A DNA stretch of 64,000 bases from Candidatus Aquivivens invisus (GCA_001804415.1 MHGA01000006.1:14308-78307); one strand, 5' to 3'; positions 1 through 61,735 are shown, counted from the first letter of the stretch. Program-made: numbers and translations. The notes: a model not told the origin generated them from the letters alone.

Positions 1-1
1 C

Positions 2-604
2 TTGCGGAGGATCCGCGAGGCGCACACGCGGCGCGCGCTCTCGTGGGGGGAGCGCATCTATTTGCCGGCCATCGCCCAGGGGTTGTGGGTGACCTCCGTC
101 CACTTCTGGCGCAACCTCTTGTTGCATCTTGCGCATCGGCTGGGTCTGTTTCGCCACATTCCAGCGTCGGTGACGATTCAATATCCCGATCAGCAGCGGC
201 AGACCTCTCCAAGGCTTCGCACGCGCCACCGGCTCATGCAGCGGGAGGACGGGACCCCTCGGTGCGTGGGCTGCATGTTGTGCGAGACGGTCTGCCCGGC
301 GAAGTGCATCTACATCACGCCGGCGGAGCATCCGGATCCGAACATCGAGAAATACGCGAAGAGCTTCGATCTCGACCTGGGCAAGTGCGTCTACTGCGGC
401 TACTGCGTGGAGGTGTGTCCCGAGGATGCGATTCGGATGGACACGCAACGGCACGACATCGCGGCCTTCTCGCGCGATGGGATGTGGCTGGATATCGTCG
501 AGCTCTTACACCCTGGCTCCAAACACCCGACGGATCCCCCGAAGAAATTTGTCCAGCTTGCGCTCGAGGACTTCAGGCAACTGAAGCGCGAGCGTCCTAC
601 CTAG
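2..604 (+). CDS. nuoI: NADH-quinone oxidoreductase subunit I, C-terminal part (two 4Fe-4S ferredoxin motifs; 5' end lies outside window)
   Basis: CxxCxxCxxxCP twice (CVGCMLCETVCP, CVYCGYCVEVCP); typical NuoI length/ending. Confidence 0.85.
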   Translation: MRRIREAHTRRALSWGERIYLPAIAQGLWVTSVHFWRNLLLHLAHRLGLFRHIPASVTIQYPDQQRQTSPRLRTRHRLMQREDGTPRCVGCMLCETVCPAKCIYITPAEHPDPNIEKYAKSFDLDLGKCVYCGYCVEVCPEDAIRMDTQRHDIAAFSRDGMWLDIVELLHPGSKHPTDPPKKFVQLALEDFRQLKRERPT

Positions 605-1712
605 CGACTCCGGAGGGGGCGAGGTTGCCGGCGCCTGGTTGTTGAGGTGCGTGGGGGTTGGGCGGCCCCCCGAACAGCTCCTTCTGGGTGGCGTGCTGGA
701 GCGCCTCGTCCGTCGTGATCTTCCTTTCCTGCACGAGCGTCTGCAAGCACTGATCCATCGATTGCATCCCTTCCTTCTTCGCCGTCTGAATGATCGAGGG
801 AATCTGGAACGTCTTGCCCTCGCGGATCAGGTTGGCGATGGCCGAATTGGCGATCATGATTTCCACGGCGGCGATGCGTTCCTGGCCATTCGCTTGCCTC
901 AGCAGGTTCTGCGCCACAACCCCGACCAACACGGTCGAGAGGACCTGACGGATCTGCGGCTGCTGGGCAGCCGGAAAGACGTTGATGATCCGGTCCACCG
1001 TGTCGGAGGCGCTGTTGGTGTGCAGCGTGCCGAACACCAGGTGGCCGGTCTCCGCGGCGGTGAGTGCGAGCTCGATCGTCTCCAGGTCCCGCATCTCCCC
1101 GACCAGGATCACGTCAGGATCCTCCCGCAGAGCCGCTCGGAGCGCGCTGGCAAACGAATCCGTATGGACGCCCGCTTCGCGCTGGTTGATGAGGCAGCCT
1201 TTGTTGGGATGCACGAATTCGATCGGGTCTTCGATGGTGATGATGTGCTCTTTGCGGTTGGCGTTGATGTGGTCGATGATGGCGGCCAGCGTGGTGCTCT
1301 TGCCGCTGCCGGTGGCGCCGGTCACCAGCACCAGCCCCGCGCGGCAGGTGGCGAACCGGATGATCTGCTGCGGCAGCCCCAACTGCGCCACGCTTTTGAT
1401 CTCGAAGGGGATATGCCGGAACACCGCCCCGGGCCCTTGCCGCTGGACGAAGGCGTTGACTCGGAACCGTCCGGTGCCGGGCAGCTCGTACGCGAAGTCG
1501 ACATCGTGGTGTTCGTTCCAGCGTTGTTTCTGCTCGGGGCTCATGAGCGGCTCGATCAGCACGCGCGCCGCCTCCGCCGTCACCACCCCCACGCCGTCGC
1601 ACGGCCGCAACTCGCCGTGGATGCGAAAAAGCGGCGGCGAGCCAGTCGTCAGGTGCACGTCGCTGGCGTGATGGTCTCTTGCCGCCACGAGCAACGGGTC
1701 AATGTCCGCCAC
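597..1712 (-). CDS. pilT: Type IV pilus retraction ATPase PilT
   Basis: Walker A GATGSGKST, PilT/PilU family motifs, 371 aa; SD GCAGGAGG upstream of ATG 1712. Confidence 0.85.
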   Translation of the reverse strand: MADIDPLLVAARDHHASDVHLTTGSPPLFRIHGELRPCDGVGVVTAEAARVLIEPLMSPEQKQRWNEHHDVDFAYELPGTGRFRVNAFVQRQGPGAVFRHIPFEIKSVAQLGLPQQIIRFATCRAGLVLVTGATGSGKSTTLAAIIDHINANRKEHIITIEDPIEFVHPNKGCLINQREAGVHTDSFASALRAALREDPDVILVGEMRDLETIELALTAAETGHLVFGTLHTNSASDTVDRIINVFPAAQQPQIRQVLSTVLVGVVAQNLLRQANGQERIAAVEIMIANSAIANLIREGKTFQIPSIIQTAKKEGMQSMDQCLQTLVQERKITTDEALQHATQKELFGGPPNPHAPQQPGAGNLAPSGVAR

Positions 1713-1805
1713 GGGTCGCCTCCTGCGACTGCAACGCTCAACGGATGATAAGGACGCTTAAAATAAGTATACCTGATCGCCGCCCGCGCTGAGGGGTGGG
1801 GAGAA

Positions 1806-3233
1806 TCAAAACGCTATGGCCGAGGAGAGGAGACGGAGAAACGGCTCCTGCACGGTGCCGATGATGACGATGCCAAGGAGCAACAGGAAGAGGACGGCCC
1901 GGCTGATGCCGTCCACCGCGATCGGCTTCGAAGACGCAGGCTTCAGCAGGTACATGCGCCGCACCACACAGAGATAGTAGTACAGCGAGATCGCCACGTT
2001 GAGGCCACCGATCGCCGCCAGCCAGAGCCGATGGCTCTCGACGGCCGAGAGCAGCACGAGCAGCTTGCCGACGAATCCGGCCAGCGGCGGCACGCCGGCC
2101 AGCGACAACAGCGCCACGAACATCGCCGCCGCCAAGAAGGGCGAGCGGTGCGAGAGACCGTTGTACTCCTCCAGCGAGTCGCCGGGGACGATCATCACGA
2201 CGAAGAACGCCGCGAGGGTGCTGACCAGGTACGCCAGGAGGTAAAAGCCCACCGCCTGCGCGCCGGAGAGCAACCCGCTGCACAGCCCCATCAGCAGATA
2301 TCCTGCGTGGCCGATGGAGGAATAGCCGAGCAGCCGCTTGACGTTGGTCTGCGGGATCGCGGCGAGGTTGCCGTACAGCAGGGTCGCGGCGGAGAGCGCG
2401 GCGAGCACGGCCGTCCACACCGCCGCAACCGGCAAGGCCACCGAGTAGAGTAGGCGCAGCAGGACGATCATCCCCGCCATCTTCGAGCCGACCGACAGGA
2501 GTGCCACCACCGGGGTGGGCGCACCCTCGTAGACATCCGGCACCCAGAGATGAAACGGCACGGCCGCCACTTTGAATCCCAATCCCGCCAAGACCAGGAA
2601 CAACCCCGCGAGCACATTCGGGCCGGCCGGGCCGGAGGCCAACAGCGCGCGGAGCGCCTCGAATCCTGTGCCGCCCGCCGCGCCGTAGAGCAAGCTGATG
2701 CCGTACACCAGGAACCCCGAGGAGACAGAGCCCATGATCAGGTACTTCATACCGGCTTCGATGGAGCGGGGATCAGTCTTGACGTACGCGGCCATGACGT
2801 ACAGCGAGAACGTCAGCAGCTCCAAGGCGATGAACAGCAGCAGCAGATCGTTGATGGACGCCAGCACCAGCATCCCCAGCAGTGCGGAGAAGATCAAGAG
2901 GTAGAATTCTCCAAGGTGGGTGATGGCCAGCGGGTTCGCCTGGCGCATCATGGCGATCACGACCGCGGTGGTAATCAGGAAGAGCCACTTGAAGGTGAAG
3001 GCGAACCCATCAAAGAGAAACATGGGTCCGAAGGCCTGCCCGAGCCAACGCGATTGCCATCCCAGCACCCACGCCAGCACCCCGATCCCCAGCATCGCCA
3101 GGCTCCACAGCCGGCGCTGGCGCTTGCCGCGTTCCAGCCCCGCGAACCGGGGGGTGAGCAGCGCATCGCCCGCCAGCAGGACGGCGATCCAGCCGCAGAC
3201 GGCAAGCTCAATCGCGACAACCGGCCAATTCAT
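1806..3233 (-). CDS. nuoN: NADH-quinone oxidoreductase subunit N
   Basis: 14-TM antiporter-like subunit, NuoN-type N-terminus, follows nuoM. Confidence 0.85.
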   Translation of the reverse strand: MNWPVVAIELAVCGWIAVLLAGDALLTPRFAGLERGKRQRRLWSLAMLGIGVLAWVLGWQSRWLGQAFGPMFLFDGFAFTFKWLFLITTAVVIAMMRQANPLAITHLGEFYLLIFSALLGMLVLASINDLLLLFIALELLTFSLYVMAAYVKTDPRSIEAGMKYLIMGSVSSGFLVYGISLLYGAAGGTGFEALRALLASGPAGPNVLAGLFLVLAGLGFKVAAVPFHLWVPDVYEGAPTPVVALLSVGSKMAGMIVLLRLLYSVALPVAAVWTAVLAALSAATLLYGNLAAIPQTNVKRLLGYSSIGHAGYLLMGLCSGLLSGAQAVGFYLLAYLVSTLAAFFVVMIVPGDSLEEYNGLSHRSPFLAAAMFVALLSLAGVPPLAGFVGKLLVLLSAVESHRLWLAAIGGLNVAISLYYYLCVVRRMYLLKPASSKPIAVDGISRAVLFLLLLGIVIIGTVQEPFLRLLSSAIAF

Positions 3234-3248
3234 CTGTAGAAGATGTAA

Positions 3249-4814
3249 TCATCTAACAATCTGTGTAATCGAGGTCTGCTCTTTAGCTATATGCACTTCG
3301 AGAGGTTGCGCGGGTGCCAGGGTGCGCGCGACGAGCGGGCGCGTGGAGAGATCAATCAATCGCACCAGCGGCTTGGGCCAGCATCCCACGATCAACAGTG
3401 CTGCGATCAACACCACATACGGGAGGCGGGCAAACGGGGTGGCGGCGTCTTTCGCGTGGGCGAGGCTCTCGTTGGCGCCTCCGAAGAACACCCCGCGCAC
3501 CATCCGCAGCATGTACACCGAGGTGATCACGATCCCCAGCACCGCCAGCACCGCCTGCAGACGGTACCGATCCCACGACCCGAAGATCACCATCATCTCC
3601 GCCACGAAGTTCGCGAATCCCGGCAGGCCGCTGGACGCCATGGCGGCCATCACCCCGCAGGTGGCGATGAACGGCAGGCGCTTCGCCAGCCCTCCCAGCT
3701 CCGGCAGGGAGCGCGTGTGCGTCTCGTCGTAGATGTGGCCGACCAGCGCGAAGGCGAGCGCCGTCATCACCCCGTGCCCGAACATCAGCAACACCGCACC
3801 GTTGAGCGAGAGCGGAGTGAGCGCACAGATCCCCAGCAGGACGTAGCCCATGTGGCTGGAGGAGGAGTACCCGATGATGAACTTCAAATCTTTCTGGGCC
3901 ATGGCGACCAGCCCGCCGTAGATGATGTTCATCGTGCACAGCCCGGCGATCCACGGCAGCCACGCCTGCGCGCCGAGGGGCAGGAGGTTCAGCGGCAGGC
4001 GGATGATCGCGTAGGAACCCAGCTTCATCAGGACCGCCGCATGCAGCATGCTCACCGCCGACGGAGCCGCGGCGTGTCCGATAGGCGACCAGCTATGCAG
4101 CGGCCACAGCGGCGCGATGACCCCGAAGCCCACCGCCAGCAGGGGAAAGATCCACCACTGCAACCGGGCGTCCAGCGGATGGGCGCGCAGATGCTCCTCC
4201 AGCGCGACCACGTCAAAGGTCTGCGCCCCGCAACTGACGTACAGCCACAAGAGTCCGATCAACGCCAGCACCGCGCCGGAGGTGAGGTAAATCGTCAGCT
4301 TCATCGCGGCGTATTCTTTCGAGAACACCACCCGGCCGCCTTCCTTGGTATCGCTGCCCCAGACGCCGATGAGCGGATACATCGGGATCACCGCCATCTC
4401 GTAGAAGAAGTAGAAGAAGAACAGATCCAGCGACAGGAACACCCCGAACACGCCGGTGATGAGCAGCAGGTAGAAGAGATAGTATTCCTTCACGCGCTCC
4501 TTGATGGCGTACGAGATCAGCACGCCGGCGAAGGCGCAGATCGCATGCAGCAGCACCAGCACGGCGCTGATCCCATCCACCCCGAGGTGAAACCCGACGC
4601 CCAGCGCGGCGATCCACGGCACCTCCACGTGGAACTGATATCCACCGGAGGAGCGGTCGAAATTCGTCACCACCCACAGCGCGGTCAGCAGCGGGATGAA
4701 GGTCGCCCCCACCGCCACCCGCCGGATGAGGCGGATCTCTTGCCGGGGGAGCCACAGCAACAGCATCACGCCCATCGCCGGCGCCAGCAGGATCATCAGC
4801 AGCGGACTCATCAT
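3249..4814 (-). CDS. nuoM: NADH-quinone oxidoreductase subunit M (start ATGATGA overlapping nuoL stop)
   Basis: NuoM-type sequence; ATG at 4814 overlaps TGA of nuoL (4811-4813); the longer ORF to 4931 is rejected as extension. Confidence 0.85.
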   Translation of the reverse strand: MMSPLLMILLAPAMGVMLLLWLPRQEIRLIRRVAVGATFIPLLTALWVVTNFDRSSGGYQFHVEVPWIAALGVGFHLGVDGISAVLVLLHAICAFAGVLISYAIKERVKEYYLFYLLLITGVFGVFLSLDLFFFYFFYEMAVIPMYPLIGVWGSDTKEGGRVVFSKEYAAMKLTIYLTSGAVLALIGLLWLYVSCGAQTFDVVALEEHLRAHPLDARLQWWIFPLLAVGFGVIAPLWPLHSWSPIGHAAAPSAVSMLHAAVLMKLGSYAIIRLPLNLLPLGAQAWLPWIAGLCTMNIIYGGLVAMAQKDLKFIIGYSSSSHMGYVLLGICALTPLSLNGAVLLMFGHGVMTALAFALVGHIYDETHTRSLPELGGLAKRLPFIATCGVMAAMASSGLPGFANFVAEMMVIFGSWDRYRLQAVLAVLGIVITSVYMLRMVRGVFFGGANESLAHAKDAATPFARLPYVVLIAALLIVGCWPKPLVRLIDLSTRPLVARTLAPAQPLEVHIAKEQTSITQIVR

Positions 4815-6760: not shown

Positions 6761-7056
6761 TTGAGCTGGCGGACCTCATCGACGTTGAGCGTCTTCAATT
6801 GGCGGGACATCAGGATCGCAATCGCGAGTCCCACGGTGACCTCAGCCGCCGCAACGGTGATCACAAACAGCACGATGAGCTGCCCGTTCAGATCCCCCAG
6901 CGCCCGACCGTAGGCGACAAACGACAGGTTGGCCGCGTTGAACATCAGCTCGATGCACAGCAGGATCATCAGCACGTTGCGCCGCGTCATGATCCCGACG
7001 AGCCCGATCGCAAAGAGCACCCCGCTGAGGACGAGGTAGTGATTGAGGGTGATCAT
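6754..7056 (-). CDS. nuoK: NADH-quinone oxidoreductase subunit K
   Basis: 100 aa, 3 TM, conserved NuoK sequence. Confidence 0.9.
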   Translation of the reverse strand: MITLNHYLVLSGVLFAIGLVGIMTRRNVLMILLCIELMFNAANLSFVAYGRALGDLNGQLIVLFVITVAAAEVTVGLAIAILMSRQLKTLNVDEVRQLKW

Positions 7057-7078
7057 CGAGGGAATGAATAGGTCGGGG

Positions 7079-7582
7079 TCATTGATCGTGTCGCGTGACG
7101 CGGGCGAGGGTGATCGCGCCGATGATGGCCGCGAGGATGAGGAAGGACGTCAGTTCAAACGGCAGCAGGTACGTCGTGAAGAGCAGGCGCGCGACCTCCC
7201 GCACCGTCCACGTCGCCGCCGCCGTCGTGCCCGGGCCGGAGGCGGTGCGCACCAACATCCCCACCAGCTGCACGCAGAAGAGTGCGCCCACCAGCGTGCC
7301 GATGGCGCGCAGCGTAAAGGGGCGCATGCGCGAGAGTGCCTCCGGAGCGAGATTGAGCAGCATGATGGCGAACAGGAACAGCACCAGCACCGCCCCGGCG
7401 TACAGGAGGATTTGGATCGCGGCCACAAAAAAGGCCCCCAGCATCACGAACAGGGAGGCCAAGCAGAACATCGCCACCAGGAGGGAGAGCACGCTGTAGA
7501 TCGGCTGGGGACTGGTGACGACCAGCAGCGCGGCCGCCAGCAGGACTGCGCTGAAGAGATAAAAACAGACTGCTTCCACCAT
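7079..7582 (-). CDS. nuoJ: NADH-quinone oxidoreductase subunit J (true start ATG 7582; the longer ORF to 8281 is an antisense extension)
   Basis: 167 aa MVEAVCFYLF..., NuoJ-type TM profile. Confidence 0.8.
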   Translation of the reverse strand: MVEAVCFYLFSAVLLAAALLVVTSPQPIYSVLSLLVAMFCLASLFVMLGAFFVAAIQILLYAGAVLVLFLFAIMLLNLAPEALSRMRPFTLRAIGTLVGALFCVQLVGMLVRTASGPGTTAAATWTVREVARLLFTTYLLPFELTSFLILAAIIGAITLARVTRHDQ

Positions 7583-7654
7583 TGGGCTCTTGCGGGGGGA
7601 TTCGGAAGGCCTTATTATAGAGGCTCCTTGTTGGGGTGTCCACTGAGGCCTCCC

Positions 7655-8779
7655 ATGAATCGTGCCCAACTCATCATCGCCGATAGCGAGAAAAACGCCA
7701 ACCTCTACTACGCCACGAGATTCCTGGCGCCCGATCCGTTCATCTTGGTTCAAGCCGACGGCCGCAAGCAGCTGGTCATGAGCGACCTGGAGCTGGATCG
7801 CGCCAAGGCGCAAGCGACGGTGGATGAGGTCCTCTCGTACACCGCCCTGGCCCGACAGGCCAAGCAACGGCTCAGCGGGGAACCGACGATGCTGGATGTC
7901 GTCGATGAGCTCTTGCAGGCGTACGGGGCGAAGGCGATCGAGGTCCCGCTCGATTTCAGCGTCGGGCACGCGGATGGGCTGAGGCAGCGGGGCTATGAGA
8001 TCGTCGCCAAGCCGGAGCCGTTTTACCCGCAGCGACTGCTGAAGTCCGAGGAGGAAATCGCCTTCCTCACCCAGACGCTTCGCGCGACGGAAGACGCGCT
8101 CGAATCGGCCATCGAGCTGATCCGCAACTCCGAGATCAAGGCCGACGGGACGCTGTGGATCGGTGGCAAGCCCCTCACGGTGGAGATGATCCGGAAGGTC
8201 CTGCACATGCAGCTGCTGGAGCGCAACTGCATCGGGCAGCACACGATCATCGCCTGCGGGGCGCAGGCGGTCGATCCGCACAACGAAGGTTCAGGCCCGC
8301 TGAGGGCCAACGAGCCGATCGTGATGGACGTGTTCCCGCAGCACGCCGATACGCGCTACTTCGCCGACATCACGCGCACCATCGTCAAGGGCAAGGCGGC
8401 TCCGAAAGTCCGCAAGATGTTCGACGCGGTGCGCGAGGGGCAGGAGATCGCCTTTCGGATGATCAAAGACGGCGTGGATGGGTCGGTGGTGCATCAAGCG
8501 ATCCTGGCCTCGTTCGAGTCGCTCGGGTTCAAGACGGGGCCGCAGGACGGCCGCATGCAGGGGTTCTTCCACGGGACGGGTCACGGGGTCGGCTTGGAGA
8601 TCCACGAGCCGCCGCGCATCAGCCCCCGCAAGGACATCTTGAGAGCCGGCATGGTGGTGACGGTTGAGCCCGGACTCTACTACATGGATGCCGGCGGGAT
8701 GCGCCTCGAGGACATGGTCGTGGTGACGAGCGACGGGTGTCTGGTGCTGACCCAGGCCCCGAAAATCTTGGAAGTGTAG
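7655..8779 (+). CDS. M24 family Xaa-Pro aminopeptidase / creatinase-type peptidase
   Basis: Creatinase N-domain plus pita-bread fold motifs (HGTGHGVGLEIHEPP, VEPGLY). Confidence 0.8.
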   Translation: MNRAQLIIADSEKNANLYYATRFLAPDPFILVQADGRKQLVMSDLELDRAKAQATVDEVLSYTALARQAKQRLSGEPTMLDVVDELLQAYGAKAIEVPLDFSVGHADGLRQRGYEIVAKPEPFYPQRLLKSEEEIAFLTQTLRATEDALESAIELIRNSEIKADGTLWIGGKPLTVEMIRKVLHMQLLERNCIGQHTIIACGAQAVDPHNEGSGPLRANEPIVMDVFPQHADTRYFADITRTIVKGKAAPKVRKMFDAVREGQEIAFRMIKDGVDGSVVHQAILASFESLGFKTGPQDGRMQGFFHGTGHGVGLEIHEPPRISPRKDILRAGMVVTVEPGLYYMDAGGMRLEDMVVVTSDGCLVLTQAPKILEV

Positions 8780-14015: not shown

Positions 14016-14336
14016 GTGATTCGACGCTCGCGTCGTGTCGTCATCATGGGGCTCGCCGTCTGTTGGAGCCTGAGCGGTCCGGCACAACCGGTGTCGGCAG
14101 ATGCCCTTGGGGATCTTGTTGGAGGGCTTGGGCAGCTGCTCATCGGCGCGTTTGCCATTCCGGTTGAAGCCATCCAGGGGACGCTCAACGGGCCGCCGAT
14201 TCTTGGGACCATCGGCGGCATCCTCAGCGGGACGGTCCATACGGTCGGTTCAACACTGGGCGGGGTGCTGCAGATCGCCAAATCCGTCGTCCCCCTCGCC
14301 ACCTCCCTGGTGCCATTTCTTCCCTGGGTTCTCTAG
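14016..14336 (+). CDS. Small secreted Gly-rich protein, divergent member of the small secreted paralog family (see 37489, 47084, 56874)
   Basis: SD AGGAGG 4 nt before GTG; signal peptide; shares PxEAIQG...G...GG..H.V block with paralogs. Confidence 0.55.
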   Translation: MIRRSRRVVIMGLAVCWSLSGPAQPVSADALGDLVGGLGQLLIGAFAIPVEAIQGTLNGPPILGTIGGILSGTVHTVGSTLGGVLQIAKSVVPLATSLVPFLPWVL

Positions 14337-14343
14337 CCCTTCC

Positions 14344-15195
14344 GTGACCGTGCATCGCACCCGGCTGTCAACCTACGCCAACTTCATCAAACTTGAGCAC
14401 ACGATTCTTTCTCTGCCGCTCATCTATGCGGGAGCCGTCGTGGGTGCGGCAGGGTGGCCCTCGATCCGGCTGGCCGGCCTGATCCTGCTTGCGGCGATCG
14501 GAGGACGGGTGATGGCGATGGGATTGAACCGCCTCATCGACGCCGCCATCGATGCGCGCAACCCCCGCACGAAGGGCCGCGAGCTGCCAAGCGGCACGAT
14601 GCGACCGCTTGAGGCGTGGGGGATCGTCGGACTGGCCGGCCTGCTCTATGCAGGCAGTGCGGCGGCGGTTGCGCCGATCTGCCTGATCTGGTCGCCGCTG
14701 CCGGTTGCGCTGTTTGTCCTGTATCCGTATCTGAAGCGATTCACCGCGCTCTCACACGTTGGACTCGGTCTGGCTTGGTCGATGGGCCCGCTCGGTGGAT
14801 GGTTGGCGACTGCGCAGTCGTTGGCGCACCTTGATCAGATCATGTGGCTGTGGCTGTTCGCCGTCTTGTGGGTGGCGGGGTTCGACGTGATCTACGCCAC
14901 CCTGGATGAAGCGTTCGACCGGCAGGAAGGGTTGCATTCGCTGCCTGCGCGGATGGGAAAAGACCGCGCCCTGCGAGTTGCCGCGTTGTTGCACGCCGCC
15001 GCGTTCATGGCTCTGGCCATCTTACAGCGCGACGTCCTGCGCTCACCCGTTGGCTGGCCGTGGCTGCTCGCCATCGCCGCCATTCTCATTTGGGAGCACG
15101 CCATCGCTCCCCGCCGCCCAGAGTTCGCCTTCTTCTACTTAAATGCCGCTCTCGGCTTCCTTGTCTTCGGTCTGGTTGCATCCGGCTTGAGATAA
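14344..15195 (+). CDS. UbiA-family prenyltransferase, probable menaquinone (futalosine-route) prenyltransferase MqnP-like
   Basis: NRLIDAAIDARNPRTKGRELPSG UbiA motif, 8-9 TM; adjacent to UbiX/UbiD homologs. Confidence 0.75.
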   Translation: MTVHRTRLSTYANFIKLEHTILSLPLIYAGAVVGAAGWPSIRLAGLILLAAIGGRVMAMGLNRLIDAAIDARNPRTKGRELPSGTMRPLEAWGIVGLAGLLYAGSAAAVAPICLIWSPLPVALFVLYPYLKRFTALSHVGLGLAWSMGPLGGWLATAQSLAHLDQIMWLWLFAVLWVAGFDVIYATLDEAFDRQEGLHSLPARMGKDRALRVAALLHAAAFMALAILQRDVLRSPVGWPWLLAIAAILIWEHAIAPRRPEFAFFYLNAALGFLVFGLVASGLR

Positions 15196-15216
15196 CGGCG
15201 CTCCTTATCCAATCTA

Positions 15217-15245
15217 TTGATAATATACATTCTATATAGTATAAT
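15217..15245 (+). promoter_or_regulatory. Canonical sigma-70 promoter TTGATA-17nt-TATAAT upstream of phd/yefM antitoxin
   Basis: -35 TTGATA 15217-15222, 17-nt spacer, -10 TATAAT 15240-15245, SD GGGAGGGAGAGG before ATG 15285; AT-rich island. Confidence 0.7.
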
Positions 15246-15284
15246 CATATTAGTGGAATTGAGTTGGTAGCAGGGAGGGAGAGG

Positions 15285-15551
15285 ATGAAGGAGATCACAG
15301 CTCTCGAGCTTCGGAAGCGCTTTGGGGAAGTCATGGAAGATGTTCGTTATCGCAAGGAGCCGTATCTCGTAAAGCGGAACGGACGCCCCATGATCGTGCT
15401 GCTTGATATCGATGCGTATCAGGCCGATGAAAGTCGCCGAAAGGAAGACGTCTTCATTGAAGACTATACCGAGGAGCGTCTTCAGGAATTCTTAGAGGAA
15501 GACCGCCTGGATCCCGGCGTGCAGGCCCGTGTGAATCGGCGTCTGCGATAA
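15285..15551 (+). CDS. Phd/YefM-family antitoxin
   Basis: MKEITALELRKRFGEVMEDV...PYLVKRNGRPMIVLLDIDAYQ typical YefM/Phd N-domain. Confidence 0.8.
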   Translation: MKEITALELRKRFGEVMEDVRYRKEPYLVKRNGRPMIVLLDIDAYQADESRRKEDVFIEDYTEERLQEFLEEDRLDPGVQARVNRRLR

Positions 15552-15983
15552 ATGGTCCGGGTCTTCCTGGATGCGAACGTGTATTTCGCTGGTTGTTATT
15601 CTGCGAAGGGGGCCTCGGCGCTCCTGCTGAAGCTGGCGGTGCGCAAACGCCTCCAAGTGGTGGCATCTCGGCTAGTATTGCGGGAAGCCGAGCGCAACTT
15701 GCATGCGAAAGCCGATCGCAAGGCTCTGCGCGTGTTTCATCGGTTCTTAGAGACTGCCACCCCGCGCATACTTCGAACGCCATCCGCCAAAACGCTCGCT
15801 GCCTACGAGACGATTATTCATCCGAAAGACGTCCCAGTGCTGGCTGCGGCCGTTGAAGCAAAGGTTGACTATCTGGTGACGCTGGACCGCCGGCATTTCT
15901 TTGCCCCCCTCGTCGAGGCCCGAATTAAATCGCCGCGCATTCTGGCCCCCGGCGACTTCCTACAGGAATGGCTGTCGAGATGA
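15552..15983 (+). CDS. PIN-domain (VapC-like) toxin
   Basis: FLDANVY PIN signature, TAAATG junction with antitoxin. Confidence 0.75.
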   Translation: MVRVFLDANVYFAGCYSAKGASALLLKLAVRKRLQVVASRLVLREAERNLHAKADRKALRVFHRFLETATPRILRTPSAKTLAAYETIIHPKDVPVLAAAVEAKVDYLVTLDRRHFFAPLVEARIKSPRILAPGDFLQEWLSR

Positions 15984-16219
15984 AACGTACAAAACGCGAA
16001 GTGGCGGACATCATTGACTCATTTTTATCAGGCGAGGGAGAGGAGTGGGACTGGGATGATTTTACCAGCATTCCAATTCACGATCCCGAGTTAAACAGAA
16101 TTCGTCTGAGGTGCGTTCAACTCGACAAAGAATTTCCTCCAGAGAAACGTGGCGAGTATTGTAATGCTCATGGAATGGACGTGTTGCGGGATTATGTGAA
16201 GCGATTACGGACGAAATAG
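15979..16219 (+). CDS. Small acidic hypothetical protein in low-GC island (80 aa)
   Basis: ATGA overlap with vapC stop; markedly AT-rich codon usage. Confidence 0.4.
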
Positions 16220-16226
16220 AGATCTG

Positions 16227-16790
16227 ATGGAGAGAATGATGCGCATTGTAGTCGGGATGACGGGGGCGTCGGGGGCGGTCTTCGGGGTGGAGTTTCTGCG
16301 GCGATGTCAGGCGGAGAAATACCTGATTCTGACGAAGTGGGGGCGGTACGTGCTGAAAGAAGAAACCGGCCTGACCGAACACCATCTAGCCGAGCATGTC
16401 AAACGCAGCTTTTCAGACGACGATCTCTCCGCGCCGTTTTCCTCAGGGTCGACGCCGTTCGATGCGCTGGTGATCGTGCCCTGCTCCGCCTCGACGATGG
16501 CCAAGCTCGCTGTCGGGATTGCCGATACCCTGCTGACAAGGGCGGCGATGGTCGCTCTCAAAGAACGGCGAAAGCTGATCATCTGCCTTCGCGAGACGCC
16601 GTTGTCCACCATCCACTTGGAACAGGCGCACAAGCTCTCGCAGGCCGGCGCCATCGTGATGCCGATTTGCCCGCCGTTCTATCACCGCCCCCAGACGATC
16701 GACGAGATGGTGAGCCAGTTCACCGAGAAGGTCCTGAGTCTCCTCGGATTCGAAACCTCGCTTGCTTGGAAAGCCGAAGCCCTTGAGTAA
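16227..16790 (+). CDS. ubiX: Flavin prenyltransferase UbiX family (MqnL-like in futalosine route)
   Basis: Flavoprotein fold motifs GMTGASGAV, PCSASTMAKLAVGIADTLLTRAA. Confidence 0.85.
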   Translation: MERMMRIVVGMTGASGAVFGVEFLRRCQAEKYLILTKWGRYVLKEETGLTEHHLAEHVKRSFSDDDLSAPFSSGSTPFDALVIVPCSASTMAKLAVGIADTLLTRAAMVALKERRKLIICLRETPLSTIHLEQAHKLSQAGAIVMPICPPFYHRPQTIDEMVSQFTEKVLSLLGFETSLAWKAEALE

Positions 16791-18548
16791 ATGGCTGATT
16801 TGCAATCCTTCCTCTCCCTCTTAGAACGCGAGGACCAACTCGCCCGCATCCGGGTGGAGGTCGATCCGGAGCTCGAGATCACCGAGATCGCCACGCGCGT
16901 GGTCAAGGAACGGGGGCCGGCGCTGTTGTTCGAGCGGGTGAAAGGCTCGGCCATCCCTCTGGCGATTAACATCTTGGGGACTGAGCGGCGCATCGAGCTC
17001 GCGCTCGGTCGGCACCCGCAAGAGGTTGGGGCCTCGCTGAAGCGCTTGATGGAAGCCGCGATGCCGCCTCGGCCCAAGCGGTTGCTCGAGGAATGGCGCA
17101 CCGTTGGCCGGGTGCTGTCGATGCCGCCCAGGCGGGTGCGTCGCGCGGCGTGCCACGACGTGGAAGAACCGCCCGACCTGGGGAAGCTGCCCATCATGAA
17201 ATGCTGGCCGAACGACGCGGGGCGGTTCATCACCTGCGGGATGGTGCTGACGCATGATCCCAAGACGGAGGTCCGGAACCTTGGCATCTACCGGATGCAG
17301 GTGGTCGGAGGCGATCAGGTGCTCATGCACTGGCAGATCCAGAAGGGCGGAGGATTCCACTATTGGAAAGCCGAGCAGCAGGGCAAGGCGCTGGCGGTCT
17401 CGGTCATCATCGGCGCAGATCCTCTCCTTTATATCGCTTCGGTCGCTCCGCTGCCTGAAGGGATTGACGAGCTGGCGTTCGCCGGATTTCTGGGAGGCCG
17501 GCGCATCCCGCTGGTGCATGGGAAGGCCACACCGACCGTCGCTCCCGCCGAGGCGGAGATCGTGCTGGAAGGTGTGGTGCCGCCTGATGAGCGCCTGCCC
17601 GAAGGGCCGTTCGGGGACCATTTCGGCCACTACTCCCATCCCGCGCCGTTTCCCGTGATGTGGGTTCAGACCATGACGCGCCGCGCCAAGCCGATTTATC
17701 TCTCGGCGGTCGTGGGCAAACCCCCTCAAGAGGACCGGTATATCGGCGACGCGGTGCAGGAGATGCTGCTGCCGATGATCCGGTTGATCCATCCGGAGCT
17801 GAAGGACCTGTGGGCCTATTACGAGGCCGGGTTTCACAGCCTGGCGGTGGCGGCGGTTGAGGAGCGGTACGGCAAGGAAGGGATGAAGACCGCCCTGGGG
17901 CTGCTGGGAACCGGGCAGATGAGCCTCACCAAGTGCCTCATCCTGGTGGATCCGGACGTCAACGCGCGCGACGCCAACGAAGTGCTGCGCGCCGTGCGCG
18001 ATCATTTCGATCCGGCGGAGGACTTTCTCTTGCTCCCTGGTGTCCCTTTTGATACGCTAGATTTTACGAGCCTGACCCCCAATCTGGGCAGCAAGATGGT
18101 GCTCGATGCCACCCGCGACGGGAAGGCATCCCCTCCAGGGGTTCCTCCAGTTGATCTGGAGGCTGTCCGGTGTCTGCATCCACGGATCCAAGCTGCCCGC
18201 ATCATCGGGGGATGTCTGGTGGCGGTCCAGGTCGAGGGCGAAGGCCGCTCGGTGGTGGAGGCGCTCGTTCAGGCGGATGCGTTGCGCGCCGTCAAGCTGA
18301 TCGCCGCGGTCAGCGCCGACGTGGACCTGCGCGAGGGCGAAAGCCTGTTGTGGGGGATCTTCACGCGGTTTGATCCCGCCCGCGACGTCGTCTTCACCGA
18401 GGTGGAGCTCCACGGAGGCTGGCCCATCCACCGAGGCCGCCTCGGCATCGATGCCACCTTCAAGACCGGATACCCTGATCCGATCGTGATGGATCCGGCA
18501 GTCGTCACACGAGTCACCCAACGATGGCCTCACTACTTCAAGGCGTAG
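16791..18548 (+). CDS. ubiD: UbiD-family decarboxylase (MqnM-like in futalosine route)
   Basis: 585 aa, UbiD family conserved blocks; starts 1 nt after ubiX stop. Confidence 0.8.
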   Translation: MADLQSFLSLLEREDQLARIRVEVDPELEITEIATRVVKERGPALLFERVKGSAIPLAINILGTERRIELALGRHPQEVGASLKRLMEAAMPPRPKRLLEEWRTVGRVLSMPPRRVRRAACHDVEEPPDLGKLPIMKCWPNDAGRFITCGMVLTHDPKTEVRNLGIYRMQVVGGDQVLMHWQIQKGGGFHYWKAEQQGKALAVSVIIGADPLLYIASVAPLPEGIDELAFAGFLGGRRIPLVHGKATPTVAPAEAEIVLEGVVPPDERLPEGPFGDHFGHYSHPAPFPVMWVQTMTRRAKPIYLSAVVGKPPQEDRYIGDAVQEMLLPMIRLIHPELKDLWAYYEAGFHSLAVAAVEERYGKEGMKTALGLLGTGQMSLTKCLILVDPDVNARDANEVLRAVRDHFDPAEDFLLLPGVPFDTLDFTSLTPNLGSKMVLDATRDGKASPPGVPPVDLEAVRCLHPRIQAARIIGGCLVAVQVEGEGRSVVEALVQADALRAVKLIAAVSADVDLREGESLLWGIFTRFDPARDVVFTEVELHGGWPIHRGRLGIDATFKTGYPDPIVMDPAVVTRVTQRWPHYFKA

Positions 18549-29667: not shown

Positions 29668-30008
29668 GCCAGAAGTCTACCAAAGGCATCGATGTCAGAG
29701 CAAGTCGTTAGGAGAGTGGATGGTGAACTAAATGCGCCCAAGAATGCACGTTAACATGATGGGGCGCATTTAAATGGAACCCCCCTGAATGTTAAGATGC
29801 ATTGGTGGTTCCATTTAGGACGGGGTGAGGGAGCGCAGCAATTCGCAGAGGATCTGGTTCGTTCGCTTGGCGCGCGCCTGCAGGAGCGGCACCTTCTGCT
29901 CGAGATGCTTGCGCACCTCCTTGCGCAAATCCCATGTCCGATCCAACACCGCGCACAGCTTGCCGATGTTGAGCTCCGCGATGGAGGCAAGCCTCTCTGC
30001 TCAAGAGT

Positions 30009-30746
30009 CTACCTGCGGCTGCGCAGCTTCGCCAAGAGCCTGATGATCTCGAGGTACAGCCACACCAAGGTCACCGTCAGGCCGAAGGCGGCGTACCACT
30101 CCATATACTTCGGGAGATTGTTCCGGGCGCCCTGCTCGATGAAGTCGAAATCCAGCACCAGGTTGAGCGCGGCCACCACCACGATGAACAGACTGATCCC
30201 GATGCCGATGGGGCCGCTGTCATGAAGAAATGGGATGGAGATGCCGAAGAAGGCCAGGACAAAGCTCGCGAGATAGACGAGCATGATCCCGCCGGTGGCC
30301 GCGGCGACCCCGAGGCGGAAGTTGGCCGTCACCGGAATCAGGCGGGAGGTGTAAGCGATCAACAGCGCCGCCAGCACGCCGAAGGTCAACGTCACCGCCT
30401 GCATCGCGATGCCGGGGTAGCTGACCTCGAACATCGCCGAGATGCCACCCAGCGCGAGCCCTTCCAGCGCGGCATAGAGCGGGGCTGTGAGCGGCGCCCA
30501 CGTTTTCTTGAGGATCGTCACGAACGCCACGACCAGCCCGCCTAACGCCCCCAGGGCGATGAAGCCCTGCACGGGAACGCCCATGAAGGCTTTGCCCCAC
30601 ACCCACGCGCTGGTCACCAGCAGCAGGCCCAGGAGCACCGCGGTTTTGTTGACGGTGCCCTGGATGCTCATGGCCGCGCCCGAGACCATGCCGCGCGCGC
30701 CGATAAACGTCCCAGCCCCTAACGCCGGATTGGCGGTTCGCATCAT
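30009..30746 (-). CDS. Bax inhibitor-1/YccA family membrane protein
   Basis: 7-TM, BI-1 family conserved regions. Confidence 0.8.
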   Translation of the reverse strand: MMRTANPALGAGTFIGARGMVSGAAMSIQGTVNKTAVLLGLLLVTSAWVWGKAFMGVPVQGFIALGALGGLVVAFVTILKKTWAPLTAPLYAALEGLALGGISAMFEVSYPGIAMQAVTLTFGVLAALLIAYTSRLIPVTANFRLGVAAATGGIMLVYLASFVLAFFGISIPFLHDSGPIGIGISLFIVVVAALNLVLDFDFIEQGARNNLPKYMEWYAAFGLTVTLVWLYLEIIRLLAKLRSRR

Positions 30747-42576: not shown

Positions 42577-43901
42577 GCGACCGCTCCGACAGGTTGGAGC
42601 AGCGGGAGCCGGATCGCCACCGTCGTGCCCGCCCCATGGCGATCCTTCAGTGCAATGCTGCCTCGATGCTGCTCCACCACCTTCTTGGCCAGTGACAGTC
42701 CAAGCCCGATCCCATTGGCCTTCGTCGTGAAGAAGGGCTCGAAGAGATTGGCCCGCGACTCCTTGGGGATGCCGGGGCCGGTGTCGCTCACGGAGACTTC
42801 GAGCGATCCATCCGCCCAAGAAGCCCCGATATCGACCACCCCACCTTCCGGCATGGCCTGGACGGCATTGAGGAGCAGATTCAATAGCACCTGTTCCAGC
42901 TGCTCCGCATCGCCGTGCACCAAGGGCAGGCCGTCGGACAGGCTGGTGCGGACTTGTATCGCTTGTTCCTCAAGAGTTGGCTTCATGACCTCAAGCGCCC
43001 GCGTGATGACGTCGCTGACCGCAAGCAACCGGAGGCAGGGCTCCGGCAGCCGCGCGAGGTCCAGAAAGTTCTGGACCATTCGCTCCAGCCGCTCGATCTC
43101 CTGCCGGATGACGGTCACGTGATCCTGGCTGGCGTGTGACGCCTCGAGTTCGTCCTGCAACGCGTGGATGCGCATTTTGATCGCGGTCAGGGGATTGCGC
43201 ACCTCGTGGGCGACGAGGCCTGCCATGTGCCCCAGGGAGGCGAGCTTCTCCGACTGCACCAGCCGTCGCGTCATGCTCCGCGCGATCAGCCAGCCACCGA
43301 GCACCCCCAACAGGATGGCGGTGGCCACGCTGCCCCAGAGCATCGTCTGAAACCAAATGAGCCGGTGACCGCTGGCTTGCTGCGACTCCGCGATCAGCTG
43401 CTCATTGAAGAAGAGCAGTTCCTCGCAGGAATCATAAAGCCGATCCGCCAGCTCGCGGCCATGCTGGAACAACAGCTGCTCGGCCGCGCGCGTCTCGCCA
43501 TCCTGAGCAAGCTGGATGACGTGATACCGCAGACGGTCGTACTCTTGATAGAGCAAACGAATCCGATCCAAGATTCGCTGCTCATGTGTTGTCAAGGCGA
43601 CCTGTTTAGCTTTGTTAAACCACTCCTCGAATTTGGCACGCTTCTCTTCCAGGAGCTTCAGCCATTGCGGATCGCCGTTCACCAGGTAGCTGCTGACCAG
43701 GCCTTTTTGGTCCAACAGCGTGATCTCAAGCTCTTCTGCAGCCTTGAGACTAGAGACGTTCTCGGTGAGAATGGCTTGCGAAGATCGAGCCACCGTATGG
43801 CTCATCTGCCCGGCAAGCAGACCAATCGCCACGACGAGCAGCCCGAGCAACACGGACCAGGCGAGTACTCTTGTCTTAAAGGACCACATGAGAGATTTCA
43901 C
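42573..43901 (-). CDS. Sensor histidine kinase (HisKA/HATPase, NtrB/AtoS-like)
   Basis: H-box HEVRNPLTAIK, N/G boxes, 2 TM. Confidence 0.8.
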   Translation of the reverse strand: MKSLMWSFKTRVLAWSVLLGLLVVAIGLLAGQMSHTVARSSQAILTENVSSLKAAEELEITLLDQKGLVSSYLVNGDPQWLKLLEEKRAKFEEWFNKAKQVALTTHEQRILDRIRLLYQEYDRLRYHVIQLAQDGETRAAEQLLFQHGRELADRLYDSCEELLFFNEQLIAESQQASGHRLIWFQTMLWGSVATAILLGVLGGWLIARSMTRRLVQSEKLASLGHMAGLVAHEVRNPLTAIKMRIHALQDELEASHASQDHVTVIRQEIERLERMVQNFLDLARLPEPCLRLLAVSDVITRALEVMKPTLEEQAIQVRTSLSDGLPLVHGDAEQLEQVLLNLLLNAVQAMPEGGVVDIGASWADGSLEVSVSDTGPGIPKESRANLFEPFFTTKANGIGLGLSLAKKVVEQHRGSIALKDRHGAGTTVAIRLPLLQPVGAVA

Positions 43902-44023
43902 GACGCTATTATAGCCTCATCGGCCTGGTTTCTTGTATTGCGTCCCAAATTGCTCCGTAATTGCCCGAAGATCTTGGATTGCTCGTTCGATGGTTCGCTG
44001 GCTGGCTCGTTTTCCGTCGCGGA

Positions 44024-44120
44024 AGCGCAAAATAAAAACCGCCATCCAGCAATGCTAGATGGCGGCCCGACCACCGAACCTCCTCTAAGAAGGGGCACAA
44101 GACATCCTTCTTAGACCCTT
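44024..44120 (-). terminator. Copy 3 of the repeated two-hairpin/terminator module (downstream of APC permease)
   Basis: Minus orientation: GGGUCUAAGAAGG..CCUUCUUAGAGG-AGGUUCGGUGGUCGGGCC-GCCAUCUAGCAUUGCUGGAUGGCGG-UUUUUAUUUU. Confidence 0.65.
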
Positions 44121-61015: not shown

Positions 61016-61449
61016 CGGTACATGACCTGCCGTTGAATCTCGTCCGGACGATTCGCAAGGTCCGGATGCGCCGCGTAGACCACCGTGAAACCGTCATACT
61101 GAGGAAACTTTCGCCGCAGGTATCGGCAGAATCGCGGCGCGTCGTGCAAAGAGAGCACGCTGATGAGGACGTTACGGTGAATGTTGTCGTACCAGACAAA
61201 GCGGGTTTCAAAAATCTCGTGGGGATCGATCAGAGACGGCTGGCCGTGCTTGAGGCCGTAGACCTCCGTGAACCCGTAGGAGCGGTCCACGTTGAAGAAC
61301 ATGATCCAGCCAGCCGGCGGGTACAGAAATTTCAGCTTCGGCAGCTCCCGCCCGATGAGGGGGCTGAGGTAGTTCAGGCGGAGGGTCTCGTAATGGAAGA
61401 CGGCGATCCAGAGGATCACGAATCCACTGATCCAGACATGGCGTCGCAT
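61006..61449 (-). CDS. Hypothetical membrane-anchored protein co-transcribed with HTTM-DCC gene
   Basis: ATG 61449; N-terminal TM; 10-nt overlap with downstream gene. Confidence 0.4.
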   Translation of the reverse strand: MRRHVWISGFVILWIAVFHYETLRLNYLSPLIGRELPKLKFLYPPAGWIMFFNVDRSYGFTEVYGLKHGQPSLIDPHEIFETRFVWYDNIHRNVLISVLSLHDAPRFCRYLRRKFPQYDGFTVVYAAHPDLANRPDEIQRQVMYRCP

Positions 61450-61471
61450 GCCACTACTATATCGCATCGCC

Positions 61472-61512
61472 GGAAAAAGAAAACGGCCCCGCGCTCGCAA
61501 GAGCGCAGGGCC
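61472..61512 (-). terminator. Intrinsic terminator of cspA (GGCCCUGCGCUC-UUGC-GAGCGCGGGGCC plus UUUUCUUUUUCC)
   Basis: Read on minus strand directly after cspA stop. Confidence 0.7.
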
Positions 61513-61531
61513 GCTTCCGGCGAGCCCAACG

Positions 61532-61735
61532 CTAGGCGGCCTTCGTCACGTTGGCAGCCTGAGGACCTTTCGGTCCTTGGGTGACCTCGAACTCCACCTG
61601 TTGGCCTTCCTGAAGGCTGCGAAAGCCGTCAGCTTTGATGGCGCTGTGATGGACGAACACGTCCTTCGACCCGTCCTCCGGGGTGATGAACCCATACCCC
61701 TTCTGGTCGCTGAACCACTTCACGGTACCCTTCGC
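61532..61735 (-). CDS. cspA: Cold-shock protein CspA family
   Basis: [18 protein letters not shown]..., RNP motifs; long 5' leader. Confidence 0.9.

Follow-up and report, generated by a model that had tools for sequence, protein, structure and literature searches.

The low-GC island between mqnP and ubiX

The DNA analyzed here, referred to as the window, is a stretch of 64,000 nucleotides (nt) from Candidatus Aquivivens invisus (GCA_001804415.1, MHGA01000006.1:14308-78307), and positions are counted from its first letter. Inside its menaquinone (mqn) cluster, 1,043 nt separate the end of an mqnP-like gene (15195) from the start of ubiX (16239). This interval holds a low-GC island (15196-16226), in which a Phd/YefM-family antitoxin gene, a PIN_3-family toxin gene and a third small open reading frame (ORF), here called ORF3, follow a sigma-70-type promoter. 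An earlier note, made from the sequence alone, had described about 1 kb of foreign DNA inserted at this place, and each element of the island was recovered at the position described. The features of the locus are as follows.

14344-15195, + strand: mqnP-like UbiA prenyltransferase gene, the left flank (PF01040, 1.6e-42; TIGR01475, 238 bits); its start agrees with that in identical contigs
15217-15245, + strand: sigma-70-type promoter TTGATA-17-TATAAT (TTGATA at 15217-15222, TATAAT at 15240-15245), with 11 of 12 consensus matches
15232-15239, + strand: perfect 8-bp palindrome CTATATAG, which abuts the -10 hexamer and was read directly from the sequence
15285-15551, + strand: Phd/YefM-family antitoxin gene, 88 amino acids (aa) (PF02604, 42.9 bits, cut-off 29.8, 4.2e-11; TIGR01552, 36.7 bits, cut-off 20.8, 1.9e-9)
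15552-15983, + strand: PIN_3-family toxin gene, 143 aa, a predicted Mg-dependent RNase (PF13470, 51.1 bits, cut-off 27, 2.9e-13; TIGR00305, 32.1 bits, cut-off 29.15)
15980-16219, + strand: ORF3, 79 aa (83 aa from an upstream ATG at 15968), whose ATG overlaps the PIN stop codon in ATGA
16239-16790, + strand: ubiX flavin prenyltransferase gene, the right flank (TIGR00421, 192.8 bits); its start, MRIVVG, agrees with that in relatives
16791-18548, + strand: UbiD-type menaquinone biosynthesis decarboxylase gene (TIGR03701, 514.8 bits, cut-off 495.9), at the head of a run of closely packed mqn genes downstream

The left-flanking UbiA prenyltransferase scored below the MqnP models' own cut-offs. The MqnC/E-like, VitK2_biosynth and YwhD genes that come after ubiD are packed so closely that they overlap or touch. 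The gap from the ORF3 stop codon to ubiX is 19 nt and holds the ubiX ribosome-binding site, and no terminator-like site was found between the two genes (16000-16300). The GC content of the island is 0.528, against a mean of 0.637 (standard deviation, 0.022) for the 48 long ORFs of the window. The GC minimum of the window lies at the island, and only 0.06% of 1,031-bp segments are equally low. The composition is uneven inside the island, with 0.38 in the AT-rich left spacer of 89 nt between mqnP and the antitoxin gene, 0.536 in phd, 0.590 in the PIN gene and 0.458 in ORF3. Thus, the anomaly seen earlier is real, but the figures then given (45 to 52% against 65%) somewhat overstate it for the PIN gene, in which GC content is only slightly lowered.

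The two proteins of the toxin-antitoxin (TA) pair match their families above the cut-offs, and the antitoxin TAA directly abuts the toxin ATG. The acidic quartet of the PIN domain (D7, E45, D93, and D112) is invariant in an alignment of 14 homologs. The toxin had been named VapC. The label is loose, because the toxin matches PIN_3 and not PF01850; the VapC-type family was absent among its Pfam matches at an E value of ≤0.1, where PIN_3 was best, followed by PIN_12 below the cut-off. A precomputed PF01850 match exists for a few homologs of the toxin. An identical PIN protein is annotated by NCBI as a PIN-family TA toxin in a Candidatus Omnitrophica metagenome-assembled genome (MAG), and the Phd-PIN_3 pairing recurs in the comparison loci L182 to L187. 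No relatives of the PIN protein were found among viral contigs, and plasmids gave PIN matches only at ≤42% identity. Several toxin families, PIN among them, are partners of Phd/YefM antitoxins; to our knowledge, the PIN_3 subfamily (PF13470/TIGR00305) has no characterized target. The window pair resembles type II Phd/YefM-PIN (VapC-like) systems in having the antitoxin first, abutting genes and small products. It also shares the N-terminal DNA-binding domain of Phd/YefM and a PIN fold that keeps the four acidic residues, and its strong promoter has a palindrome next to the -10 hexamer, which autoregulation would predict. It differs in its toxin, which is PIN_3 rather than the classic VapC, and in its position within a biosynthetic operon together with a third, unrelated gene. 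Judged by sequence, the pair is an ordinary type II TA cassette, already annotated automatically in NCBI.

The promoter is near consensus, in agreement with its first description as a textbook sigma-70 site. The window has two sites within one mismatch of TTGACA-17-TATAAT, against none in 100 shuffles. The second site (7614-7642, - strand; TGGACA...TATAAT) lies antisense within a long + strand ORF (7043-8779). In L182 (GCA_964624155.1), the closest relative found, both hexamers and the 17-nt spacing are identical to those of the window, and the left spacer is alignable throughout. The stretch TTCTATATAGTATAATCATATT is identical in the two although its surroundings diverge. The palindrome is a candidate operator for autorepression by the antitoxin.

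Insertion, age and the cassettes of related species

The gene order mqnP-ubiX-ubiD is kept across phyla. In the Omnitrophota L016, L022 and L025, the mqnP stop and the ubiX start are separated by 6, 8 and 18 bp, respectively; in Ignavibacteriales and Acidobacteriota loci, this gap is 8 to 49 bp. Because the gaps are short in relatives and in other phyla alike, we take the tight junction to be the ancestral state and the cassette of the window to be an insertion. The comparison of mqnP-ubiX synteny that the earlier note had called for thus returned empty sites, as an insertion predicts. The UbiD gene finds its best relatives in MAGs of Candidatus Omnitrophota from groundwater, at 73 to 82% identity. 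The island and its context, with all three genes, were identical on all ten contigs examined, out of 24 that carry ORF3 and drawn from many JGI and ENA groundwater samples, and the island is therefore fixed in the species as sampled. A 14-nt similarity between 15275-15288 and 16226-16239, considered as a flanking direct repeat, proved to be just two Shine-Dalgarno-plus-ATG regions.

L182, with amino acid identities of 79% for MqnP and 92% for UbiX, carries UbiA, Phd, PIN_3 and then UbiX, in this order, at the same site. The identity between the window and L182 is 86% for Phd and 77% for PIN. As a synonymous measure we took, among the residues that are identical in the two species, the share whose codons differ; it was 0.43 for Phd and 0.55 for PIN, compared with 0.41 to 0.49 for the flanking genes (hyp513, MqnP, UbiX, and UbiD). 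Since the ortholog occupies the same site and its synonymous divergence is like that of the flanks, the Phd-PIN cassette is at least as old as the split between the window species and L182 and has since been inherited vertically. A module at the same place in relatives with native GC content had been named in advance as the finding that would speak against a foreign island. L182 has the same-site module, while its GC content (0.53 to 0.56, versus 0.57 to 0.63 in neighboring genes) is still slightly below that of its flanks.

The mqnP-ubiX and ubiX-ubiD junctions were compared in the twelve closest species, the window included, with the following contents.

Window: mqnP-ubiX, Phd-PIN_3-ORF3; ubiX-ubiD, tight
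L182: mqnP-ubiX, Phd-PIN_3, then a Phd and RelE-like pair; ubiX-ubiD, tight
L020: mqnP-ubiX, Phd and ParE on the + strand; ubiX-ubiD, 90 bp in which no gene was found
L019: mqnP-ubiX, Phd and RelE-like on the - strand, homologous to the second pair of L182; ubiX-ubiD, tight
L024: mqnP-ubiX, VapB and PIN (PF01850) on the - strand; ubiX-ubiD, a 23S_rRNA_IVP gene, GC 0.49
L015: mqnP-ubiX, a VapB remnant; ubiX-ubiD, a 23S_rRNA_IVP gene
L023: mqnP-ubiX, 221 bp of noncoding DNA; ubiX-ubiD, Phd and ParE plus a 386-aa gene
L017: mqnP-ubiX, two PAS-domain genes; ubiX-ubiD, 143 bp
L018: mqnP-ubiX, 153 bp of noncoding DNA; ubiX-ubiD, 235 bp of noncoding DNA
L016, L025 and L022: mqnP-ubiX, empty; ubiX-ubiD, short

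Six other species (L020, L019, L024, L015, L023, and L017) thus carry different cargo at these junctions. With the window counted, the cargo in the clade ranges over three TA types, four-helix proteins of the 23S-rRNA-IVP type, PAS proteins and one member of the ORF3 family. A second cargo type at the operon consists of the 23S_rRNA_IVP or bAvd-like four-helix-bundle genes (L015:5587-5937 and L024:5556-5912; GC, 0.48 to 0.49). The possibility that TA genes are dense throughout these genomes was considered. With the TA queries used, TA-like loci in the relatives numbered seven inside the junctions and two outside them in about 121 kb, and the 64-kb window holds no other clear TA locus. Because related species carry different small cassettes at these places, the mqnP, ubiX and ubiD junctions are read as an insertion hotspot in the clade. 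No shared boundary repeat, integrase, tRNA or attC-like site was found at the junctions, and no literature description of a hotspot in the menaquinone operon was found.

Matches to Phd or ParE outside the mqnP-ubiD junctions were seen at L016:11325-11787 and L018:2104-2706, and TA cassettes therefore also occur elsewhere around the mqn cluster. In the window, one weak ParE-like match (29755-30222, + frame; phmmer match to the L023 toxin, E value of 0.001) partly overlaps a - strand ORF (30009-30746) and is probably spurious.

The earlier note took composition and promoter as signs of recent horizontal acquisition. A late arrival in this species would suit the lowest-GC kilobase of the window, the lack of the island in several relatives, and the recognition of TA pairs as mobile cargo in groundwater Omnitrophota (bioRxiv 10.64898/2026.05.20.726742). 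For the Phd-PIN pair, such an arrival is contradicted by the same-site ortholog in L182, with its flank-equal synonymous divergence and conserved promoter. Low GC content and a near-consensus promoter are poor evidence of recency for TA cassettes, because both persisted across speciation, and the AT-rich spacer is accounted for by promoter function. Only ORF3 can be lineage specific. In addition, the island has no integrase, no attC-like site, no tRNA (none lies within 8 to 24 kb) and no convincing direct repeats at its edges. Rfam gave no match, and searches of viral contigs and plasmids turned up no close relatives. We regard a recent acquisition as very unlikely. Another explanation concerns what keeps the cassette in place. 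It holds that the TA pair is retained mainly as a promoter that drives and conditionally regulates ubiX, ubiD and other mqn genes, which would couple menaquinone synthesis to TA autoregulation. In its favor, there is no terminator, ubiX begins within 19 nt and the downstream genes are tightly packed. Between species, the core of the promoter is kept and the spacer beside it diverges, and promoter-bearing cassettes lie at the same junctions in other species. Against this, relatives with empty sites manage without a cassette, and the opposite-strand cassettes of L019 and L024 are unable to donate a promoter to ubiX. We consider such domestication unlikely as the main explanation, and it is compatible with an old, vertically inherited TA cassette.

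ORF3 and its family

ORF3 had been described as an acidic, overlapping ORF of 80 aa. The overlap stands, the length is 79 aa, and the acidity is only mild (17 D/E versus 15 K/R), with the N-terminal half being acidic. The homology search proposed for it gave no match in Pfam, NCBIfam, PADLOC or PHROGs, and Pfam was also silent on 38 members of its family, but the search did uncover a large unannotated family, with 1,095 representatives at 50% identity (E value of ≤1e-3) and 1,699 clusters at 90% identity. The members with a source name are all called hypothetical, save one evidently spurious label, and none carries a Pfam domain. The predicted fold is a four-helix bundle (AlphaFold pLDDT, 95.5); a sequence-profile match to the PDB was dismissed as chance (E value of 0.72). 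The family conserves the motif G-x-G-x-x-W-D-W-D-D-F, from which we call it the WDWDDF family, together with D35, R42, C45, PP53-54, Y60, C61, G65 and L76. Many members have an N-terminal hydrophobic helix, and the window copy is without one.

Homology between the window and L182 stops where the PIN gene ends. In the place of ORF3, L182 has an AT-rich spacer of 188 bp, followed by a second Phd gene and a gene for a 99-aa RelE-like protein. L185, whose PIN protein is 68% identical, is likewise a two-gene Phd-PIN_3 module without ORF3. The contexts of the family were surveyed in 86 loci, comprising six long-contig contexts and 80 metagenome loci, and no PIN or Phd neighbor was found in any of them (phmmer). 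Most copies are solitary small genes, and some are wedged among housekeeping genes, such as purM-ORF3-purN in L099.

A gap of 14 bp separates the family gene of L096 from the preceding gene, which encodes a 1,334-aa DUF6531/RHS/YD-shell protein. The last ~60 residues of this protein follow the pattern LLNxNDYxRIGWGW...VFRIGIG...HxHIxLF. This C-terminal domain recurs 3 to 9 bp 5' of the family gene in L132, L135, L161 and L176, and L143 retains a 27-aa remnant of it 8 bp 5' of the family gene. The domain therefore adjoins the family gene in six of the 86 loci (~7%), at gaps of 3 to 14 bp and in four clearly different sequences. Pfam assigned it to no family. The conserved domain has the shared pattern LLNxNDyFRiGyGW...VFRIgIG...HxHIxLW, is preceded by a glycine-rich stretch and is located as follows.

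L096:3-2987, C-terminal ~120 aa of the RHS protein
L132:1642-2262
L161:1503-1757
L176:2-337

As this domain, wherever found, precedes a gene of the ORF3 family, it is a candidate for a new polymorphic-toxin domain. The nearest homologs of the window ORF3 are P0002 and P0003 (a frameshifted P0002), which lie in a low-GC repeat array (L014:380-2048, also in L011 to L013). The array has four copies of ~175 nt that start with GCCTAAC, end with GTTAGGC, have internal complementarity and separate short ORFs; the ORF3 homolog within it carries an N-terminal membrane helix. By its repeats, it looks like an attC-type chromosomal integron cassette array in a low-GC organism. The window ORF3 is separated from ubiX by only 19 nt, and no inverted repeat resembling attC was detected. 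Viral contigs gave three weak or partial matches to the family, and plasmids gave no match to ORF3.

Orphan immunity genes of polymorphic toxins are described in PMC10539506, PMC12247911 and PMC3150448. The family of ORF3 is small and helical, is found directly 3' of an RHS C terminus, is otherwise scattered as solitary copies and behaves elsewhere as a freestanding mobile gene. ORF3 is therefore best read as an orphan gene of the immunity type that joined the TA operon, although our confidence in this role is about even. The earlier suggestion of an immunity-like partner accordingly suits an RHS-type toxin domain and does not suit the PIN toxin. The likeness to orphan immunity genes of RHS, CDI and T6SS systems extends to the variable sequence of the C-terminal domain that precedes the family gene, the toxin-remnant-plus-immunity arrangement of L143, and the mostly solitary and patchy copies. 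In contrast to those genes, the ORF3 family and its partner domain have no Pfam match, Imm families included, and in the window the neighbor of the gene is a TA pair and not an rhs locus or an immunity array.

Two other roles for ORF3 were weighed. In a tripartite module, as the earlier note had proposed among its options, ORF3 would be a functional third component of Phd-PIN, such as a regulator, a chaperone or a second antitoxin. The three small, co-directional, overlapping genes behind one promoter do recall three-component TA systems (toxin-antitoxin-chaperone, or ParE-type with a regulator), and ORF3 lacks a separate promoter, its start overlaps the stop codon of the PIN gene, and its sequence does not vary among the contigs read for the species. 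However, ORF3 is missing from the orthologous cassette of L182 and from the related L185, and its GC content is 13 points from that of PIN. Its relatives are found alone, as an integron cassette, or 3' of the RHS-type domain, and none of the 86 family loci adjoins PIN or Phd. Since ORF3 never co-occurs with the pair in the sampled loci, the linkage of three genes that defines such systems is absent, and we regard a tripartite module as improbable. A less remote alternative, though still a tentative one, is that the family is a small housekeeping or regulatory protein and that its toxin-adjacent cases are a minority coincidence. Consistent with this, about 93% of the sampled loci have no C-terminal domain upstream, some copies lie within core operons, as in L099, and the two conserved cysteines and frequent N-terminal membrane helix could suit many functions. 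A coincidence is less easily reconciled with the recurrence of one conserved domain 3 to 14 bp upstream in six loci, once as part of a full RHS protein and once as a remnant. The patchy distribution, low-GC copies, cassette-like insertion and single integron cassette are likewise typical of orphan immunity genes (PMC10539506, PMC12247911).

A TA cassette with a probable passenger gene at the operon junctions

Taken together, the island is best explained as a two-gene type II TA cassette with a separately acquired single-gene passenger, ORF3, inherited vertically at a hotspot, and we give this explanation a probability of roughly 0.7. The Phd/YefM-PIN_3 cassette would have entered the once-tight mqnP-ubiX junction of a futalosine-pathway menaquinone operon in an ancestor common to at least one sister species, and vertical inheritance would have followed; ORF3 would have joined the 3' end of the PIN gene in the lineage of the window only. 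By analogy with established type II TA systems, PIN would be toxic, and Phd would bind and neutralize this RNase. The antitoxin or the complex would repress the promoter through the palindrome CTATATAG, in a probable autorepression, and turnover of the antitoxin would free the toxin. Phd and PIN are predicted to be coupled in translation (TAA, then ATG), and the anatomy of the locus suggests that ORF3 is translated from the transcript of the TA promoter through the ATGA coupling. Because no terminator separates ORF3 from ubiX, the gap is only 19 nt and the downstream mqn genes overlap, the TA promoter probably also reads into ubiX, ubiD and those mqn genes, and this may help to retain the cassette, alongside addiction.

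Several points weigh against this explanation. The TA queries were taken from the junctions themselves, which is an ascertainment bias in the count of loci inside and outside them, and the sample is twelve species. PIN_3 toxins are poorly characterized. As for ORF3, the window holds no RHS gene or matching C-terminal domain, and the gene follows PIN and not an RHS-type domain. The toxin-adjacent arrangement accounts for only ~7% of the family loci, most of the others being solitary and some lying among housekeeping genes, and the family could have another role. The ATGA overlap implies coexpression of ORF3 with the toxin, which would also be expected of a true third component.

The junctions share with integrons and other small-cassette hotspots the presence of one- or two-gene, promoter-bearing units, in tandem at one site, with frequent TA cargo; a homolog of ORF3 is itself an integron cassette in L014. 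They differ from these in that the window junctions showed no integrase, no conserved site for recombination and no repeat like attC, and in that the cassettes lie in both orientations within the operon of an essential pathway. A broader proposal joins two parts, namely, that the junctions form a cassette-capture hotspot (at least seven independent cargoes, in both orientations and sometimes in tandem) and that the WDWDDF family is the cognate immunity to a new RHS C-terminal toxin, the whole pointing to an unrecognized site-specific or selection-driven loading mechanism. We regard this proposal as possible but doubtful. If it is true, selfish and defensive mini-genes are loaded by such a mechanism into an essential operon for a respiratory quinone, whose transcription may be exploited or supplied in this way.

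As one more Phd-PIN_3 module, the TA pair contributes little by itself. What is modestly novel is the hotspot at the junctions, together with a lead to the function of the unannotated ORF3 family and its partner RHS C-terminal domain. An Omnitrophota operon of an essential pathway appears to tolerate and repeatedly collect small selfish cassettes at two junctions, which offer a tractable comparative system for the spread of TA pairs without recognizable mobile-element machinery. In addition, a function that can be tested is now proposed for a family of about 1,700 clusters, namely, immunity to an RHS C-terminal domain that is likewise without annotation.

Some further features of the window and its relatives were recorded. 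The lowest-GC long ORFs of the window, at 43164-44114 (+ strand, 0.573) and 61033-61584 (+ strand, 0.594), have a GC3 of ~0.60 and no Pfam match and may be other foreign or fast-evolving genes. Between contigs L002 and L001 of the same species, positions 1-3950 differ upstream: SfsA and QueC replace Thy1, chlorite dismutase, DLH and flavin reductase, and a 513-aa gene is shortened in L002 to 451 aa (98.5% identical over 398 aa), which reflects either a strain-level rearrangement or an assembly chimera. Just 5' of mqnP, the window has a 106-aa ORF (14016-14336, + strand) that is rich in glycine and hydrophobic residues and has no Pfam match. This ORF is kept at the same position in all close Omnitrophota relatives, at 34 to 54% identity, and is present in two copies in L018.

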